Shown one piece after another: positions 6,989 through 29,889 of a stretch of 29,889 bases of DNA. The stretch's first letter is position 1. Each line of letters opens with the position of its first letter. The DNA comes from an uncultured cyanobacterium (GTDB taxonomy: Bacteria; Cyanobacteriota; Cyanobacteriia; Cyanobacteriales; Microcystaceae). The translations under genes were made by a program, and so were the position numbers. Location: NCBI GenBank assembly GCA_963807635.1, contig CAWEDJ010000034.1:1-29889 (forward strand), in the 5' to 3' direction. A model generated the notes under the pieces. The model was given only the letters and a program-made list of their open reading frames with translations, did no database searches and was not told where the DNA came from.

Positions 6989-7243
6989 CTAAGGATTAGG
7001 AAAAAATCCAAACTTGATAATGGCTCCCACCACAGTGACAATTAAAACCCAGATTTGAGAACGCTGAGAACCTTTGAGATCGGTGACATCCACTTTTAAT
7101 TGGGTTATTTCAGCTTCGATTCTCGGTAAAGCCTCTAATTTTTGCTCAATACGGTCAAATCGACTGTCCATTCGGTCTAATCGTTTATCGATCTTTTCCA
7201 GAATATCTTTTAAATCAGTTTCTATGATGACGGGGTTACTCAT
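6989..7243 (-). CDS. Small coiled-coil protein with C-terminal TM helix (XhlA/DUF4164-like)
   Basis: Heptad repeats then QIWVLIVTVVGAIIKFGFF; paralog at 16214..16447. Confidence 0.8.
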   Translation of the reverse strand: MSNPVIIETDLKDILEKIDKRLDRMDSRFDRIEQKLEALPRIEAEITQLKVDVTDLKGSQRSQIWVLIVTVVGAIIKFGFFPNP

Positions 7244-7281
7244 GGGGACTCAGTCCTAAAAATACAAGGTTAACTCAATCT

Positions 7282-7836
7282 TTATTTTAAATCTAAAACT
7301 AATTTCATCCAAAAATAACTGGTAATTGACTTAGCATCAATGGGTTTACCTTCAATAATGGCTTGTTCAAATTCCTCAAAACTCATTAAAACAACTTCAA
7401 TATCTTCATCTTCATCTTGAGCAGGAGGTTTCTCTAATTTCTCTAAATCTTGAGCTAAAAAAGCATAGATAAATTCATCGGAATACCCAGGAGCTAAGGC
7501 AAATTTTCCTAGCGATCGCCATTGATTAGCGCGATAACCTGTTTCTTCTTCTAATTCTCGTTTAATGGTTTCGGCGGGATCTTCAGTTGTTTCAACGGTT
7601 CCTGCGGGAAATTCTAATAATCTACCCTGCACAGCAAAACGATATTGATTGACTAAAACTAATTTTCCGTCGTTGGTAATAGGGACAGCTAAAGCTCCTC
7701 CTGGATGATTAATACATTCCCATTCACCTTCAGCACCATTGGGTAAACGACGTTGACTGACTTCAAAATTAAATTTTCTACCTTGATAGAAAAGGCGTTG
7801 TTTGATCACTTCTGAAGGTTCATTTCCAAGGGACAT
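7282..7836 (-). CDS. nudF: NUDIX hydrolase (ADP-ribose pyrophosphatase-like)
   Basis: Nudix box PAGTVE...IKRELEEETGY; HPGG, QYR, LAPGYSDE. Confidence 0.9.
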   Translation of the reverse strand: MSLGNEPSEVIKQRLFYQGRKFNFEVSQRRLPNGAEGEWECINHPGGALAVPITNDGKLVLVNQYRFAVQGRLLEFPAGTVETTEDPAETIKRELEEETGYRANQWRSLGKFALAPGYSDEFIYAFLAQDLEKLEKPPAQDEDEDIEVVLMSFEEFEQAIIEGKPIDAKSITSYFWMKLVLDLK

Positions 7837-7898
7837 TTTTGATTTTCCTGAATAATTTAGGTTGTCTTAATCGGTTTAATTAATCGACAAAATAAGCA

Positions 7899-8390
7899 CT
7901 ATTTTAACAGAGAATTACGATTTATAATCCCTGAACAATCGATCGCCTGGGATAACTGTAAAATGGTCTGTCTAGAAATGGGTTCAATCCAATGGGCGGC
8001 AATTTCAGCTAAGGGAACTAAAACAAACGCCCGTTCATTCATGCGAGGATGGGGAATCGTTAAATTCGGCATTTCTAGGATTAAATCACCATACAACAGT
8101 ATATCTAAATCTAAAATTCTTGGCCCCCAACGCTCCTGACGAATCCGACCAAATTGCTGTTCAATTTTTAAAAGAATTTGTAAAAGGTCTTCAGGCAATA
8201 ACTCGGTTTCTAGAATTGCACATCCGTTGACGTAATCGGGTTGGGGCGGCCCCACAGGAACCGTTTCGTACCAGCTAGAATAGGAAATAAGCTCTATGCC
8301 TGAAGTCTGAGACAAGCTCTCTAGGGCTTGATTTAAGATCTGTTTAGATTCTCCTAAGTTACTGCCTAACGCGATCGCACATTTCACCAT
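7899..8390 (-). CDS. folK: 2-amino-4-hydroxy-6-hydroxymethyldihydropteridine diphosphokinase
   Basis: IALGSNLG, QPDYVN, RWGPRILDLDILLY, IPHPRMNERAFVLVPL. Confidence 0.97.
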   Translation of the reverse strand: MVKCAIALGSNLGESKQILNQALESLSQTSGIELISYSSWYETVPVGPPQPDYVNGCAILETELLPEDLLQILLKIEQQFGRIRQERWGPRILDLDILLYGDLILEMPNLTIPHPRMNERAFVLVPLAEIAAHWIEPISRQTILQLSQAIDCSGIINRNSLLK

Positions 8391-22810: not shown

Positions 22811-23041
22811 TTAACCTTTTGCTGGAGCAGATTTCACCAATTCCAACTCGCTTTCTGCAAAGTTGTTGGTGTTGATGCCCGAAGCACTACCGCTAAAACC
22901 CGCGTAATTGACGCGCTCAAAACGGACGATTACGGGATAGAGAATACCGCTTTTTTCTACCGTTGCAACCGTTCCAACGTCTCCGTACCAATAGGATTCG
23001 GGACGCTTGATTTTAACGGTGTCTCCACGTTTGATAGCCAT
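22811..23041 (-). CDS. psaE: Photosystem I subunit IV
   Basis: [15 protein letters not shown]...YPVIVRF...NTNNFA. Confidence 0.98.
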
Positions 23042-23143
23042 AGATTTTTATTCCTTGATAAGTCCGTATTTCAAAAAAACCTGATTTTCTGTATTCCCGA
23101 AGGAAGACAATTAACAGGGTTTGTCCAGTTTACTTAATGCCAA

Positions 23144-23208
23144 ATTTTACCAGTTTTCCCCTCGTTGTCGATGACTCACCCCAGTTTGCGATTACAAATC
23201 TTTACATA
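23144..23208 (-). promoter_or_regulatory. psaE promoter: extended -10 TGgTAAAAT and HLR1 (RpaB) site at about -54 to -71
   Basis: ATTACAAA-tc-TTTACATA at 23191-23208 fits (G/T)TTACA(T/A)(T/A)-N2 repeat, at the spacing known for PSI promoters. Confidence 0.75.
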
Positions 23209-23267
23209 ATGAGGTCAAAGCTGTCCCTATTTTCCTCTTCAATAAAAAGGGATATCGCCCATAATCA

Positions 23268-23360
23268 TAAGTAGTTGTACAAAATTAATTACGCAAAAAT
23301 CGGCTTAAAAACCTTGTATAACAGTAAAGATCTGTGTAAATAATTTCGTCTTATTACTTA
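23268..23360. mobile_element. 93-bp MITE with TA ends (IS630-like)
   Basis: 28-bp TIR, 21/28: TAAGTAGTTGTACAAAATTAATTACGCA vs rc TAAGTAATAAGACGAAATTATTTACACA. Confidence 0.7.
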
Positions 23361-23464
23361 AGTGCTGTTACTTAATTGATAAAATACGGGAGTTTTTTGC
23401 TATCTAAGATTATTTTTTTTTCACAATGGCTATGGGATAAAACCCTTCGATCAATAAATGATGG

Positions 23465-23890
23465 TTATCCAAAAAAGGCATCACAGTTTTGACATTGATA
23501 ATCCCCAAAACTATTAAAAGGGGGTTGAAAAGCAGTAACTCTAATAAATTCTTTATTTTTGTCATAACAAACACTACAAAAAGGGCCGTCTCCATCCTAA
23601 GAATAATAAAGCCCATCCCGAAAAATCGGTTTATCTAAATTGATAGCAGATTGCTCTAATACTTTAATTCTCGCCTTTAAAGCATCATTTTCTTCCTTAA
23701 GATTAACAACTTCAGACTTGGTTTCAACTAATAAATTTTTAGTATCGACCAATGTTGACCTTAATTCAACGATAATCTCCTTAATTTCAAGATTTTGAGT
23801 TTTATCAGATAATTCTTTAGCTTTTTTCAACAAATCACTGGCTCTCGTAACAAGAAGAATGCCAGCCTGTATATCTTGTGCCGTTACCAT
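23465..23890 (-). pseudogene. Coiled-coil + zinc-ribbon hypothetical protein with an in-frame TAG at 23597-23599
   Basis: ...RDGLYYS*DGDGPFCSVCYD...YQCQNCDAFFG* continues in the same frame. Confidence 0.7.
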
Positions 23891-24042
23891 CTCAAGATTA
23901 GCCTCTAATTGTTTAATTCCACTTAAAAGCGTAACATAATACTGAAATTCTAACTCTAGTTCGTTTGTTTTTGTCATTTTTCACATTAGGTAGCTGTACA
24001 AAACACACCACAAAACGAGAGGCATATCGCTTATCATCTTAA

Positions 24043-25224
24043 TAAGCTGTTGAGCATTTAAACTGCATTGACAGCGTTACCCTTGTTTTTTAGCTTCCGC
24101 CCCCAATTTATAACTAGCTCCCCCTCATTTAGTAATCGGTTAAGGAGTTCTTCTAGTTCTTCTATTGACTTAAATAGACGGTTTGCAATAAACTCTTTCG
24201 CTGAATGCCATACCAACTCTATTAAGTTATAGTCTGGACTATATTCTGGTAAAAACTCTATTATTAAATTCGGCATTTTCTCTTTTATTTTCTCTAGAAA
24301 CTCTTTCTTTTTATGAATACTTGCATTATCTAATATAACCAGTATTTTTCGCCCGTTAATTTCAAACTCTTCTATTTTATTACCATTTTCTGACCATTCT
24401 ATTTTTATGTCTTCATAAAACCCTTCCAACACTTTAAAGAAGTTTTCTCCTGTTCCTTTTTCTAGAAATTCTACTCGTGTTTTTTTATCTGAAAGTCTCA
24501 ATGCTCCCATTACATTTACTCTTCCTTTTCTTCTATTTCCCTTCACTTTCTTTCTTTTTCCTTTTTTGCTCCAATTTTTTCGTCTTAACACCCTCAAACC
24601 GAACCCAGATTCATCCCAAAACCATATCTGGAGACGCTCTGGCGACTCTTTTGCTATTTTTAAATATTTATCAAATTTTTCCTTAAATAGCTTTCTTTTC
24701 TCTGGGTCTTGGCTTTCTTCTAAGCTATATTTTGCCCAAATATACACATACTTTTTTGATTTTAATATTCTTCTTACTTGACTTCCACTTAACTTTATTC
24801 CTGTCTCTCTTTCTAAATATTTTGCTAATCTTTGTGCTGTCCATCTCCCAAATTCGTAACCTAATTCTTCGGGGTCTTTATCTATTACCTCCAAAAGTTT
24901 ATTAACATATTCTGGAGTCGCTTTTTGATAATTCCCTTCCATTCTTTTATCTTTTAGGCTTTCCAGGTTATTGGCATCTCCATGAACACACCAATAGGCT
25001 ATCTTTCTTAATGAGCATCCTACAAAATCTGCTATTTCTTGTTGAGTTTTACCATCATTTTGTAATAATAATATCAGGATTCTCTCCCTGATATCTGGAT
25101 GTTCATTATATTTCAGTTCGTTTTGTAGTTTCTGTTTTTCATCCGTTTTTAGATGATTTTTTACTGGCATGACTTTTCTCCTTTTTTACTTTCATTATAT
25201 GCTATTTAAATGACTAACAGCTTA
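24043..25224 (-). mobile_element. IS630-family element with TA target duplication
   Basis: TIR TAAGCTGTTGAGCATTTAAA vs rc TAAGCTGTTAGTCATTTAAA. Confidence 0.9.
24058..25170 (-). CDS. IS630 family transposase
   Basis: HTH, RWT, FWDESGF, LDNASIH, LPEYSPDYNLIELVW. Confidence 0.95.
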   Translation of the reverse strand: MPVKNHLKTDEKQKLQNELKYNEHPDIRERILILLLQNDGKTQQEIADFVGCSLRKIAYWCVHGDANNLESLKDKRMEGNYQKATPEYVNKLLEVIDKDPEELGYEFGRWTAQRLAKYLERETGIKLSGSQVRRILKSKKYVYIWAKYSLEESQDPEKRKLFKEKFDKYLKIAKESPERLQIWFWDESGFGLRVLRRKNWSKKGKRKKVKGNRRKGRVNVMGALRLSDKKTRVEFLEKGTGENFFKVLEGFYEDIKIEWSENGNKIEEFEINGRKILVILDNASIHKKKEFLEKIKEKMPNLIIEFLPEYSPDYNLIELVWHSAKEFIANRLFKSIEELEELLNRLLNEGELVINWGRKLKNKGNAVNAV

Positions 25225-25309
25225 CTGCGCGGTAAATACAATATTCTGTATTTTCGTAGAGTGGGTGTTTGCGTTACGCTATAATGGTGTTGAAAATAAA
25301 GGTTTTATT

Positions 25310-25456
25310 ATGAAAACAGTTAATATTACTCAAGTTCAAGACTCTTTTGATGATTTTCTAAACTGCATTGACCAAGAGCAAATTGTCATTGAAAAGGAAG
25401 GAAAAGCGATCGCAACCCTGATTAATTATGAAGAATGGAAACGATTAAAACAGGTA
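25310..25456 (+). pseudogene. Phd/YefM antitoxin, 5' part (3' part at 28429..28545)
   Basis: MKTVNITQVQDSF...IVIEKEGKAIATLINYEEW; TATAAT at 25280. Confidence 0.85.
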
Positions 25457-25602
25457 TAGCCAACCTAAATGAGATGTGAACAGGCCAAGGATGGAATCTT
25501 TTAATTTCCCAAAACTCAATTAGCTTCTCTCCATGACTTCTGTTAGAAATAAGGAATCAGTAAAAAGAGCTTGAAGTTTTCACAATTGATTTAGGCTCGC
25601 TA
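25457..25602. mobile_element. 146-bp MITE, copy A
   Basis: TIR TAGCCAACCTAAATGAGATGTGAA vs rc TAGCGAGCCTAAATCAATTGTGAA; about 90% identical to copy B. Confidence 0.9.
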
Positions 25603-26798
25603 CATTAGCTTGCAATTGTCTAGCAACCCAACTTAAACTATTAATCGTTTCATCTAATTTTGGTTCTTTTTCTACAGTTTTATAAGCCCAACGATGATTT
25701 TGTAAGTCTTTTCTGCGATCCGAAGAACGTTGATCAAAAGATAGCTGACGTTCAACATATTTTTCTAATAAATCAGCCTTGCTCTTAATCGGCTCTTGAT
25801 GGTCATAAACATCAGCCAAAAGCTTAATAAATAAAGGCACTCGCAATAAACCATGTTCACCTTCTACCGTTTCTTGCAATAACCCTTGTAACGCCAAATT
25901 AATTTCCATTTCCGACCATAAATTAGCCCGATTAATACTCTGAAAATAAGCCTCAATTTATCTATCGGATAATTCCTGAAGACAGAATCGCCCCATTCAG
26001 ATTATTCAACTTAATATTAGCCGTTTCAAATTCCCTAACCCGACAACAAACCACCAATTGCGGATAGGTTCGCGCAAATTCATTTAACTTCTCTGTACAC
26101 TTTTTTTGCCGTTCCAAACCCAACTCATCTAACCCATCCAATAACGGCAATAAAACCTGTCTCTCTAGCCATTGCTCATAAATTTTTCGTTTACGATTTC
26201 CCCCATGCAAATCATACAACTGCTCAATAATCCAAGCCTCAATACTTTGACTATCCTCGCGCCAGGTCGAAAGCTCCAAAATAACTGGAATCACCGTTTT
26301 GGGTTGATTAATTGCTCCTATCACTAACTGTTATGCTAAACTCAATAATGCCGTTGTTTTCCCCGAACCAGGCGCACCTAAAATTAATAATTTTCCTGAA
26401 ATATCATCTCGTCCAAAAGTTTCAATTAATAGTTTATTTGGATCAAGAAAACCGCCATCTTTGCCATTAATTTGCAACTGACGATCCACCTGTAAACGAT
26501 TAACCCAGGCTTGCTGTTCGGCAATCGAAACATCCATTAAAATCCGTTCTCAGCCCAACGTATCTGTCAAACGTTTACGAATTTCAGGTAATTGCTTTTT
26601 TTCTAATAATAATTTTGCCCAATCCCAATCCACCTGATTCGATTCAGAGCGACCAAATAAGCTCAGAACAATATTTCTAATCGTGACTTTATTGTGATCA
26701 CTATTGTTAAAACCAATTGCATCTCCTTCCGTCTGAAGTTGCTGAACACTACTATTTTCAATCCTGCTATGATCAATATTTTGATCCTGTGAAGCCAT
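25603..26798 (-). pseudogene. NACHT (STAND) NTPase gene, 3'-truncated, with stops and a frameshift
   Basis: ILGAPGSGKTT, IPVILELSTW, LLPLLDGLDEL, VVCCR; in-frame stops at 26550 and 26331. Confidence 0.88.
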
Positions 26799-26866
26799 AA
26801 CAGCAAATCCGTAATAAATGACGATTTAATTATTTGTAGAGGTTTGATTCCCAAATCTATTAAGTA

Positions 26867-27012
26867 TAGCCAGTCTAAATGAGATGTGAACAGGCAACAG
26901 ATGAAATCGTTTAATTTCCAAAAGCTCAATTAGCTTCTCTCTATGACTTCTGTTAGAAATAAAGAATAAGTCAAAAGAGCTTGGAGTTTTCACAATTGAT
27001 TTAGGTTCGCTA
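26867..27012. mobile_element. 146-bp MITE, copy B (same orientation as A)
   Basis: 15 mismatches vs copy A, gapless. Confidence 0.9.
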
Positions 27013-27015
27013 TAG

Positions 27016-28425
27016 CGCTGTTCTATCAATCTAGGCAGAAGATAGATAGAAATCACGCGGAAAAATCATCTCCAACAGAGAATTTGTTAGTTTACTTAAC
27101 TGGAAGAATAGACGACAAAATACTCGCAGTATTTGAGGAGTAAAAATCACGACTAACCAAGATTTAAGCAGATTGAAGTAACATAATGGCTGAATAAACA
27201 ATTGTAAATTATTGAGGGTATTTTTCCAGCCCTTTCCCTTATTCCATTTTGGGTGTTTCTGCATTTCTTCTTGAGCAGATTCAGCTAATGTATCAGGAGG
27301 TTTTCTGGATTTGTTCAAGGCTTCTGATTGAAGACTCACCATTAAGTAAGCACTCATGACCAGTTCCCACCACTTTTCAATTTTTTTATATTCTGTTACT
27401 CGAAAATCTGCCCATCCTAATTCATTTTTACTTTGCTTTAAACCGTACTCTACCCAATTTCTTACTCCGTACAAGTTACCAACTTCTTTATATTTAATGT
27501 TGGCTACTTTTGTCATAATATAGAAAGTGGAGTTCGGTGGTAGCGTTTCTGTATTATCTGTTACTTGCCAATATCTTATTTCTCTTTTTTTACCGAATAT
27601 AATCTCTCTTATATATCTGATTTCTTTCTTTCCTGTTGAGAATATTCTGGTGAACTCTCTCCATTTATTACATCTTACTTTTTGCTCAGGTGCCAACCAT
27701 ACTCCGTGATTGCTCCGAATCGCTAGCACAAAGTCTAGTTTTTCTTTTTCTAAGATACTAACAAAATTATTCTCACTTTCACCATATTCACTATCTGCTA
27801 ATACGATTTTAATTTTAAATCCTAACTCTTTCAGCTTTTTAATCATTTCTCCTGCAATTTTTGGCTTACTTTTGTATTCATCTCCTTCTTTTAATCTTGA
27901 CTTTGGTTTGTACACTTCACTTAATAAGGGGAATGTCATTCCTCTTATTACGCCATAGGCTGTTACTGCCACTATTCCATTTTCTATCTTTCCTAGATTT
28001 CCTATGTATTGTCTCTTCACATAATCTGTTTTATTCCCTTTTTTTCTATCTCCTGTTTCGTCTATAATTACCATTATTTCCTCCTCTTTTACTTCATTTA
28101 AAATTAACTTTAATCTTCTCTTTCTTACTTCCTCTACTGACCACTCTGATTTTTCTATAAAATAATCTATTCCCTGACTATTTTCTAGCCCCGCTACTTC
28201 CGCTATTGCTGGAAATGTCTTTCTTTTTTTCTCTGATATTAATCCCAAATGGATATATTTAAAATATTCATAACTTCTCACTTCTGCGAATAAGTCTCTA
28301 TACACTTCACAGTATTCATCAATGAATTTCACTGTTTCTTGCGCTACCCGTGGCTTAACCATATACCACCTACCTCTTTTAGGGCTTTTTCTTAATTATA
28401 ACTCTCCTTCTCTGATAGAACAGCG
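27016..28425 (-). mobile_element. IS701-family element with ATAG target duplication
   Basis: Perfect 13-bp TIR CGCTGTTCTATCA; ATAG at 27012-27015 and 28426-28429. Confidence 0.92.
27031..28362 (-). CDS. IS701 family transposase
   Basis: IIDETGDRKKG, RQYIGNLGKIENG, LADSEYG, RNWVEYGLKQSKNELGWADF. Confidence 0.95.
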   Translation of the reverse strand: MVKPRVAQETVKFIDEYCEVYRDLFAEVRSYEYFKYIHLGLISEKKRKTFPAIAEVAGLENSQGIDYFIEKSEWSVEEVRKRRLKLILNEVKEEEIMVIIDETGDRKKGNKTDYVKRQYIGNLGKIENGIVAVTAYGVIRGMTFPLLSEVYKPKSRLKEGDEYKSKPKIAGEMIKKLKELGFKIKIVLADSEYGESENNFVSILEKEKLDFVLAIRSNHGVWLAPEQKVRCNKWREFTRIFSTGKKEIRYIREIIFGKKREIRYWQVTDNTETLPPNSTFYIMTKVANIKYKEVGNLYGVRNWVEYGLKQSKNELGWADFRVTEYKKIEKWWELVMSAYLMVSLQSEALNKSRKPPDTLAESAQEEMQKHPKWNKGKGWKNTLNNLQLFIQPLCYFNLLKSWLVVIFTPQILRVFCRLFFQLSKLTNSLLEMIFPRDFYLSSA

Positions 28426-28428
28426 ATA

Positions 28429-28545
28429 GAAATAGAATGGATGAGTGAAGATGACGAAAATTTCTACACTGTGGAAGAAGTTGTCGCTGAATATAATCAA
28501 ATTCACGGGACAGAATTTACATTAGAGAATTTAAAAAATGACTGA
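28429..28545 (+). pseudogene. Antitoxin 3' part (EIEWMSEDDENFYTVEEVVAEYNQIHGTEFTLENLKND*)
   Basis: Joins in frame to 25310..25456 after removing the insertions; its stop overlaps an ATG at 28538. Confidence 0.75.
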
Positions 28546-29800
28546 ATCTAATCAATATAATCATTTTTAACATTGTATGAGCATAGTTCAAACCACGGTA
28601 GTAAGCTTTAAGATCAACAATGCCAGAGCCAGGATTATCTTCACGGAACTGAGCTAGAAGAAGATGGGATAAATTGACCATGAAAAAAGAAAGGTTAGCC
28701 GCATTAGTAACAGAGGTTTGACCGAGGTTCATAAAATCTTCCAATCCCCAAAACTGCTTGGCATCACGAAAATTAAATTCGATTTGGAAGCGTAGTTTAT
28801 AGTAGTCGATAATTTTGTCATAGGATAAAGTTAAGTCACTGGAAAAGAGAATTACGTGACTGCGTGCATTAGTTTTGAGATTGGTTTTCACCAAAATCAC
28901 TACATTCAGGGACTGGGCAAATTCTTTGTGCAGTAAGGTAGCTTGATAAGTATCGGTTTGGATATCTTCCTCAATAATACTTTGACGCAAATATTCATCA
29001 GAAATATTCTGCCAGTTCAGCTTATCCCCGTATTTACGACGAGAGGGATGATTCGGGTCAGAATGTTGGTAAGGTATATACAGTGCTGAATCATGACGTA
29101 ACTTGGAAATGATGTGGAAGTTAACCTGCTTCGCCATCTGTAAAGCATTGTTGTTTCCAAAATGACCGTCTAAGACCAAGTAAGTGAGGGGAATAAAGTT
29201 TGCTATTAACTTGACTAACTCATTAATCATTTTCTTAATTCGTAATAATTCAGGTGTAAGAACTACCTCTTTTTTATTTTTGTTCTTACTTCCTTTTGGT
29301 CGTCCTCGTTCCCGTTTTTCTTGAGGTTTTACTTCTGGAATTGGCGAGATACTACTTTTTTCTACATCCCTCTTGATTACCTGTTCTATCTGAATCGGAA
29401 ATGAGTGTCTTTGTTCAACACTTACTAACGATAATGTAAAGAAAGATAGTCCCGATATTGGTTTACTGAATAGACTTGAAAAGAACCTATCTAATCCATA
29501 AGTTTTTTTGCCCGCTTTCGTTATCACTACCTCGTCTCCTGCCAGCAAATAAACATCGTTTGGAGAGAACAAATGCCGACGAAAAAATATCCAAAATACT
29601 GTTGCCCAGGGGATGACTGTATGAAAAAATCTCATCACTGTCCGATAACTACCACCAGTTCCTGCCCAACGGGAGATTCCCAACATTGTCACTCGTCCGC
29701 TCATGCCTAACATTGCCATGATAATACGCCTCAACTGACGCATCGTTGTCACTTTTATTTCTGGTACTAGGCATTGCAAGAGTGTTAGTATGTCCAACAT
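28517..29800 (-). CDS. DDE transposase (IS4/IS701-like), probably 3'-truncated near 28560
   Basis: LAGDEVV, VLDGHFG, YYKLRFQIEFNFRDAKQFWG; last ~14 codons read into antitoxin/toxin DNA; window ends in the probable IS end TTGGCTAA. Confidence 0.85.
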   Translation of the reverse strand: MLDILTLLQCLVPEIKVTTMRQLRRIIMAMLGMSGRVTMLGISRWAGTGGSYRTVMRFFHTVIPWATVFWIFFRRHLFSPNDVYLLAGDEVVITKAGKKTYGLDRFFSSLFSKPISGLSFFTLSLVSVEQRHSFPIQIEQVIKRDVEKSSISPIPEVKPQEKRERGRPKGSKNKNKKEVVLTPELLRIKKMINELVKLIANFIPLTYLVLDGHFGNNNALQMAKQVNFHIISKLRHDSALYIPYQHSDPNHPSRRKYGDKLNWQNISDEYLRQSIIEEDIQTDTYQATLLHKEFAQSLNVVILVKTNLKTNARSHVILFSSDLTLSYDKIIDYYKLRFQIEFNFRDAKQFWGLEDFMNLGQTSVTNAANLSFFMVNLSHLLLAQFREDNPGSGIVDLKAYYRGLNYAHTMLKMIILIRFSHFLNSLM

Positions 29801-29889
29801 GGGCTGTCTGTGGTTTTCGAGGTGTTGTTTTTGAAGACTATCACTCTACTACATTCAGTCCTCTCTCTTCATCCGCTTTTTTTGGCTAA

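Follow-up and report, generated by a model that had tools for sequence, protein, structure and literature searches.

The window analyzed here, which is the entire 29,889-base contig C34 of the draft genome G000 of a cyanobacterium, contains a Phd/YefM-type antitoxin gene interrupted by a 1556-bp segment (25457–27012) that lies at a single TA dinucleotide. This segment is composed of a pair of MITEs (miniature inverted-repeat transposable elements), denoted MITE-A and MITE-B, with a fragment of a NACHT gene between them. It is very probably a non-autonomous composite transposon, or macrotransposon, which moved as one piece into the antitoxin gene. An insertion sequence (IS) of the IS701 family was added later at its right junction, and the locations of these features are collected in Table 1. 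The draft genome comprises 107 contigs (4.03 Mb, 40.9% G+C) with 93.7% completeness and 3% contamination.

Table 1. Features of the composite unit, the interrupted antitoxin gene, and the neighbouring insertions; positions are those of the window.
Feature	Position	Strand	Description
MITE-A	25457..25602	+	146 bp, subfamily A; terminal inverted repeats of ~24 nt
Cargo: NACHT gene fragment	25603..26866	-	1264 bp; codons 1-395 and 68 bp upstream; start codon 26798-26796
MITE-B	26867..27012	+	146 bp, subfamily B; orientation same as MITE-A
Right TA target duplication copy	27013..27014	.	Inside the ATAG duplicated by the later IS701-family element
Phd/YefM antitoxin, 5' part	25310..25456	+	Codons 1-49; last two bases (25455-56) are the left TA copy
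Antitoxin, 3' part	28430..28545	+	Forms codon 50 together with G27015, then 37 codons; stop 28543-45
ParE-family toxin remnant	28538..28558	+	7 codons; cut by the third insertion sequence
IS701-family insertion sequence	27016..28425	-	1410 bp; transposase 27031-28362; at the right MITE/TA junction
Third insertion sequence	28559..29889	-	DDE_5 transposase 28517-29800, IS701/IS4-like; reaches the contig end
IS630-family insertion sequence (context, outside the unit)	24043..25224	-	Inverted repeat; transposase 24058-25170

The MITE pair and natural empty sites in the antitoxin gene

A repeat search detected one long direct repeat, 25454–25602 against 26864–27012, with an identity of 90%. The 146-bp unit of each copy was set by BLAST against the genome, which gave 131 identical bases of 146 and 15 differences. 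A preliminary description of the window, made from its letters, had placed two direct 146-bp MITEs of about 90% identity around the 5' part of a NACHT gene and a TA at each outer end of the unit, and both readings hold: the outer TA copies are located at 25455–56 on the left and at 27013–14 on the right. The inner flanks, which are part of the NACHT locus, are CA (25603–04) beside MITE-A and TA (26865–66) beside MITE-B. Two copies of one family hence bracket the cargo with a target duplication at the outer ends only, which is the arrangement of a composite transposon. The ends of each MITE pair over approximately 24 nt. No open reading frame of at least 40 residues lies wholly inside either MITE, and the frames overlapping them extend into the flanking DNA. 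The single-strand folds of the two MITEs are not unusual in stability (z-scores of +1.13 and −1.29). Counting the family by BLAST, as the preliminary description had suggested, showed that the genome contains 10 full-length copies and a truncated one. TA was present on both sides of 7 of the 8 solo full-length copies, in a genome where TA accounts for 6.4% of the dinucleotides. These elements are small, non-coding, and multi-copy, and they have terminal inverted repeats and a TA duplication, as is characteristic of MITEs of the IS630/Tc1 type.

The one solo copy with other flanks is located at 2004–2149 of contig C54 of this genome. It is a MITE-B copy identical to that of the window with TT on both sides, which indicates either a non-TA target or a change at both flanks. 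On contig C49 (6752–6968), a 74-base internal fragment of the IS701-family element abuts another MITE copy, which is an example of nested mobile-element debris.

The 15 diagnostic sites that separate MITE-A from MITE-B span positions 7–140 of the 146. MITE-A exhibited the A state at 15/15 of them, as do the solo C48 copy and two copies of the same-genus genome G004, with each of which it shares 99.3% identity; its own sequence is unique in the assembly, the nearest copy being one base different. MITE-B exhibited the B state at 15/15 sites, similar to solo copies on C107, C98, and C54 (100% identical) and on C5 (99.3%). The two ends of the unit had been ascribed to independent donor insertions, and this is supported by the purity of each MITE for its own subfamily and by its 99–100% likeness to solo copies.

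The same purity bears on the alternative mechanism of the preliminary description, the integration of a circle by recombination at a resident MITE. Here, a circle containing one MITE and the NACHT fragment would have been released at another locus through recombination of two direct MITEs and then taken up by homologous recombination into a MITE resident at the antitoxin TA. Such integration yields the same layout and the same outer TA duplication, and MITEs are known as recombination substrates (PMC10969869). If an A-type MITE recombines with a B-type one, however, reciprocal A/B chimeras must result, whereas both MITEs are pure at all 15 sites and 99–100% identical to solo copies over their full length, which leaves the crossover a room of 6 bp at either end. 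Circle integration was hence rejected because of the pure A and B states at positions 7–140, and we regard it as extremely improbable.

The antitoxin frame was rebuilt by coordinates, for which 27016–28429 (the IS701-family element with one ATAG) was removed, followed by 25457–27014 (the unit with one TA). This gave us an unbroken frame of 87 residues, the same as that proposed in the preliminary description; downstream, only one of the three frames is open. The rebuilt protein aligned without a gap to the 87-residue orthologues of genomes G009 and G008 with 76/87 and 75/87 identical residues, respectively, and both orthologues keep TA at the insertion point. Homologous antitoxins do therefore continue past the junction, as the preliminary description had presumed. 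The 3' part aligns colinearly with these two proteins, sharing 30/38 and 31/38 residues, and the N-terminal 49 residues are 90–98% identical to intact 87-residue orthologues. The N-terminal part was matched to Pfam PhdYeFM_antitox (PF02604) with a borderline score (30.0 bits; cut-off 29.8), and the G008 orthologue scored just below this cut-off (28.4 bits). When 61 genomes were searched with the N-terminal 49 residues, a match was obtained in 7, including the genome of the window, and in none of 5 same-genus genomes.

A scan of metagenome contigs for the antitoxin detected 18 loci, the best of which was L050. This contig is colinear with the window at 22947–23235 (the psaE side, 92%), 25232–25459 (94%), and 28427–28562 (90%), and encodes an intact 87-residue antitoxin and an intact 92-residue ParE toxin. 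L050 is a syntenic natural empty site. A second contig, L051, has the same empty-site join and a premature stop at codon 48 of the antitoxin. Furthermore, a contig of the public run X4 joins 25454 to 28427 and skips 2972 bases, which corresponds to 1556 + 2 + 1410 + 4; two letters are ambiguous at this join, as expected for a TA duplication. The X4 joint was taken as corroboration only. In L050, L051, and X4, the flanks are present without the unit and without one TA copy, and the G009 and G008 genes agree with this. These empty sites, together with the outer TA and the TA found at both inner junctions in NACHT homologues (described below), support the earlier proposal that the MITE pair moved as one unit.

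The stop in L051 is located one codon before the position of the unit in the window, so that the antitoxin may be decaying in more than one lineage.

A stepwise rearrangement without joint transposition, in which single MITE insertions came first and the NACHT fragment was then brought beside the antitoxin halves by inversions, deletions, or translocations involving pairs of MITE copies, would suit a locus as crowded as this one, with at least 4 mobile-element insertions from 24043 to the contig end. This route, however, needs an A-type and a B-type MITE at the very same antitoxin TA. It also does not predict that removal of the segment and one TA gives a gap-free 87-residue gene laid out as in the empty sites. 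Its intermediates, in which the antitoxin is split over two MITE-ended loci, were found neither in the 61 genomes searched with the N-terminal 49 residues nor in 41 genomes searched with the unit DNA. We consider such an origin hardly credible.

The NACHT cargo and the candidate transposase

The cargo DNA shares 87.4% identity with the intact 709-residue paralogue of contig C105 and 89.3% with a gene of G014, which is the genome of another genus. Pfam NACHT was matched by the C105 paralogue (29.5 bits; cut-off 26.7). The pieces of the cargo gave no Pfam NACHT hit of their own; they are 82–87% identical to the paralogue at the protein level, and one of them (26331–26537) holds a GAPGSGKT motif. 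Lesions were mapped against C105 and G014, which gave TGA at codon 83 (26552–50), TAA at codon 156 (26333–31), an extra T near 25986 (approximately codon 271), and TAA at codon 280 (25960–58). A tblastn match was likewise broken into two parts, which confirmed the frameshift. With three premature stops and one frameshift, the cargo is a decayed pseudogene; it is oriented antisense to the antitoxin and is fused to no gene. The unit had been described as a route for shuffling STAND/NACHT domains, which was not borne out by these observations: the cargo is dead, the partner toxin gene of the target antitoxin is also destroyed, and no functional shuffling of genes or domains is seen. The unit has no evident function and is a gene-disrupting insertion with junk DNA.

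Both inner junctions fall on TA in the intact homologues of C105 and G014, as predicted by two ordinary MITE insertions into a NACHT locus. The NACHT copy was probably already decaying when the MITEs arrived, because MITE-B is still identical to three solo copies and MITE-A is one base away from its nearest copy.

At the locus of the C105 paralogue (L001, 4390–7989), the C-terminal half of the 709-residue protein appeared by eye to be rich in hydrophobic stretches. An open reading frame of 147 residues without a Pfam match is located upstream of the paralogue. It is directly followed by another of 264 residues (7195–7989), which by eye is a putative transposase, and a short repeat just upstream of the latter is present in many contigs.

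IS630/Tc1 elements use TA as their only target and duplicate it (PMC2170065). The assignment of the MITEs to the IS630 family is therefore well supported. Matching ends were detected in other genera. In genome G091, an element of 1184 bp that is flanked by TA and occurs in several copies matches the MITE ends at 22/24 and 18/24 bases, and encodes a transposase of 359 residues assigned to NCBIfam IS630 (154.1 bits; cut-off 100) and Pfam DDE_3. Similar elements in G024, G064, and G036 match 19–20 of the 24 end bases. Among 89 genomes of the taxonomic family, the MITE end motif was found in 33 and the reversed control motif in 0, while the transposase lineage of the G091 type was found in 32 at E ≤ 1e-10. 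Two same-genus genomes contain this lineage as fragments only. The preliminary description had postulated an IS630-like transposase acting in trans and an autonomous insertion sequence with matching terminal repeats. Both are supported only indirectly, by the IS630-family elements of other genera, such as that of G091, and neither was found in the genome of the window. A transposase of this lineage may be the one that acted on the unit.

The genome itself holds 41 DDE_3 matches, which belong to several IS630-like types. The three resident types whose ends were compared with the MITE ends differ from them; a fourth type has 67% amino-acid identity to the IS630-family copy of the window. Five further DDE_3 loci among the 41 matches had no MITE-like ends nearby.

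Two short elements of G024, at 2339–2438 of L032 (approximately 100 bp) and at 2470–2548 of L033 (79 bp), have the MITE end motif of the window. They are TA-flanked except for the left end of the L033 copy, which is flanked by GA. Their shared end motif suggests that the IS630 lineage spawned MITEs of several sizes across the family.

Based on these data, the following course of events is the most probable. A donor locus would have received, independently and at two TA sites, two MITEs that belong to one IS630-type family but represent different subfamilies, one located 68 bp upstream of a decaying NACHT copy and the other in its codon 395. An IS630/Tc1-type transposase supplied in trans would then have brought together the two outer ends, the left one of MITE-A and the right one of MITE-B, so that the entire 1556-bp segment was cut out and pasted into the TA that spans codons 49/50 of the antitoxin, thereby duplicating this TA. 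The acting transposase, the cut-and-paste chemistry, and the whereabouts of the donor are presumed in this scheme. An IS701-family element later entered the ATAG that had formed where the end of MITE-B meets the TA and the base after it.

Several observations weigh against joint transposition of the MITE pair. The unit is located at one site only, and no second copy was found. The inner flank beside MITE-A is CA, which needs either a later substitution or a non-canonical target. The 3' half of the NACHT gene was expected by the preliminary description next to a MITE or a scar. With the C-terminal half of the C105 gene as the query, neither tblastn nor blastn revealed another such half in the genome. 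A MITE contiguous with the cargo was present in no other genome among the 41 searched with the unit DNA. Patterns of the junctions gave 0 hits as well, an exact one for MITE-A/cargo in metagenome contigs and another for cargo/MITE-B in genome contigs. No match to the G091 transposase was obtained at E ≤ 1e-10 in this genome, which is 93.7% complete, and the 24-nt MITE ends (≤5 mismatches) occur in it at MITE copies only. The X4 joint was flagged as "between: not known", its shorter side being 32 letters with 88% likeness. Lastly, the best public run contained a fraction of 0.26 of the sampled words of 25250–27250, so that the source reads of the assembly were not found among the public runs.

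The last of these points equally favors an assembly artefact, in which the contig was misthreaded via the multi-copy MITE-B or the insertion sequences and the cargo does not lie inside the antitoxin. The draft state of the genome (107 contigs, 3% contamination) and the three identical copies of MITE-B elsewhere are also in line with it. No contig from four public runs bridges the junction of the antitoxin and MITE-A, and the uncovered stretches give no evidence either way. However, MITE-A, which has no identical copy in the assembly, links the 5' half of the antitoxin directly to the cargo. On the other side, the ATAG copy beside the 3' half retains the terminal A of the MITE, which is absent from the empty site. 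One TA is the breakpoint of both antitoxin halves, and the MITE ends that face it are of the A type on the left and of the B type on the right. The presence of both types of end at one antitoxin TA requires a unit bounded by A and B whatever lies between them, and a misthreaded contig is therefore very unlikely.

Comparison with known mobile units

MITE-bounded composite units are already known, and what is notable here is the completeness of the readable history and not a new principle. We filed the present unit with the MITE-bounded units, and not with those of the Tn5 or Tn10 type, because neither MITE encodes a transposase. In Acinetobacter, class 1 integrons are flanked by MITEs, and a mercury-resistance region of 76 kb is located on pA297-3 between two copies of MITE-297 (PMC6382973, PMC10969869). 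The likeness is that two non-coding MITEs bracket a cargo in the manner of a composite transposon and without a transposase of their own. The Acinetobacter units, as described there, have identical MITEs of 439–502 bp and a working resistance or mercury cargo, and occur in Proteobacteria, mostly on plasmids. By contrast, the unit of the window has IS630-type MITEs of 146 bp that belong to two subfamilies 10% apart, a TA duplication, and a dead gene fragment as cargo; it resides in a cyanobacterium, and its empty site occurs in nature.

A MITE-like pair was observed to move a resistance gene as a composite element at the bench, in work cited in PMC3189936. This pair provides a precedent for two MITEs transposing with the intervening DNA. 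We take it to be the one that bears the name integron mobilization unit. It is associated with another insertion-sequence family and other hosts, and its mobility was demonstrated experimentally, whereas we infer the mobility of the present unit from a single insertion, because neither a second copy of the unit nor a donor remnant was found.

An IS630-associated composite transposon that targets TA was reportedly described by Tenzen and Ohtsubo in 1991, and is said to have complete, transposase-encoding IS630 copies at its ends. It shares with the present unit the transposase family and the TA target duplication at the outer ends. It differs in that both ends are non-coding MITEs here, for which no matching transposase was found in the genome.

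In maize, macrotransposition is performed by closely linked Ac/Ds elements, and gene fragments are captured in plants by elements of the Pack-MULE type. As in the present unit, two neighbouring non-autonomous elements act jointly through their outer ends there, so that pieces of host genes are carried within a non-autonomous unit. These elements, however, belong to the eukaryotic hAT and Mutator families, and Pack-MULEs obtain their fragments in another, copy-based manner. In cyanobacteria, MITEs such as Nezha and those of Microcystis are small, non-coding, and bounded by terminal inverted repeats. The MITEs of the window resemble them as small elements of this kind that depend on resident insertion sequences. 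No report of a cyanobacterial MITE pair carrying cargo was found in the literature searched, which was limited in coverage.

The present locus is an exceptionally well-recorded natural example of two MITEs and the intervening DNA transposing together. Its history can be followed in the sequence from the syntenic empty site to the occupied one, including the separate origins of the two ends and the relative order of the later, nested insertion. It extends MITE-bounded units from plasmid-borne resistance contexts of Proteobacteria to IS630-type MITEs on a cyanobacterial chromosome, and indicates that ends that are 10% diverged and 1.5 kb apart are still usable together. For annotation, it is a warning that a stand-alone piece of a gene flanked by two small repeats can be the cargo of a transposon. 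A wider speculation is that, in bloom-forming cyanobacteria, host DNA is actively shuttled by transposase-free MITE pairs of this IS630-type family, with the transposase not encoded in the genome and arriving transiently, for example on a plasmid or a phage, or from a strain-variable insertion sequence. We give this generalization a low probability. If it were true, it would be a bacterial counterpart of the plant macrotransposons and Pack-type elements, by which defence-type NACHT/STAND modules and other gene pieces could move between loci and strains.

Later insertions and the surrounding locus

The IS701-family element at the right end of the unit was identified by its transposase (NCBIfam IS701, 258.5 bits; cut-off 150) and by the first 13 terminal bases, which are identical at both ends. 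It is bordered by a perfect 4-bp duplication, ATAG, at 27012–15 and 28426–29. Of the four duplicated bases, the first is the final base of MITE-B, the middle two are the TA, and the fourth is the antitoxin base that follows. The MITE base is absent from the empty site, and its inclusion in the duplication indicates that the IS701-family element was inserted after the unit. Other IS701 copies have WTAN at 12/12 left flanks and 5/6 right flanks, and their sites are otherwise unrelated. A preference of IS701 for MITE ends was therefore rejected, as these sites have WTAN alone in common. A 452-base contig of run X3, a lagoon metagenome, contains MITE-B, TAG, and the first 16 bases of IS701 (window 26863–27031) with one difference. 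The 272 bases on its left side are unlike the cargo, which corresponds either to the same MITE/IS701 junction elsewhere or to a chimeric contig.

The third insertion sequence gave a Pfam DDE_5 score of 172 bits, and its NCBIfam IS701_3 score (106.6 bits) was under the cut-off of 170. Its other copies align from window base 28559, and the homology of L050 to the window stops at 28562. In orthologous loci, the gene with the same start as the toxin remnant is intact and encodes 92 residues matched to Pfam ParE_toxin (39 bits), and it overlaps the stop codon of the antitoxin in G008 and L050. The remainder of the ParE gene was not found anywhere in the assembly. The toxin–antitoxin module may already have been dispensable, its ParE gene being truncated, and the antitoxin locus is a sink for mobile DNA.

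A PsaE gene and an Fpg/MutM gene are located a short way upstream of the composite unit, as befits a cyanobacterial host. An Rfam scan of 23000–29889 gave 0 matches. The IS630-family element at 24043–25224 is flanked by TA and lies 86 bp upstream of the antitoxin start. Its transposase was assigned to Pfam DDE_3 (121 bits) and NCBIfam IS630 (274.4 bits; cut-off 100), and five copies with an amino-acid identity of at least 99.5% are present in the genome. Its ends are unlike the MITE ends. In the syntenic contig L050, approximately 2 kb of the window (23236–25231) is missing, and 86 unrelated bases take its place. This region is composed of the IS630-family element and an 800-bp stretch, which has an open reading frame of 126 residues on the minus strand (23597–23977) with no Pfam match above the cut-off.

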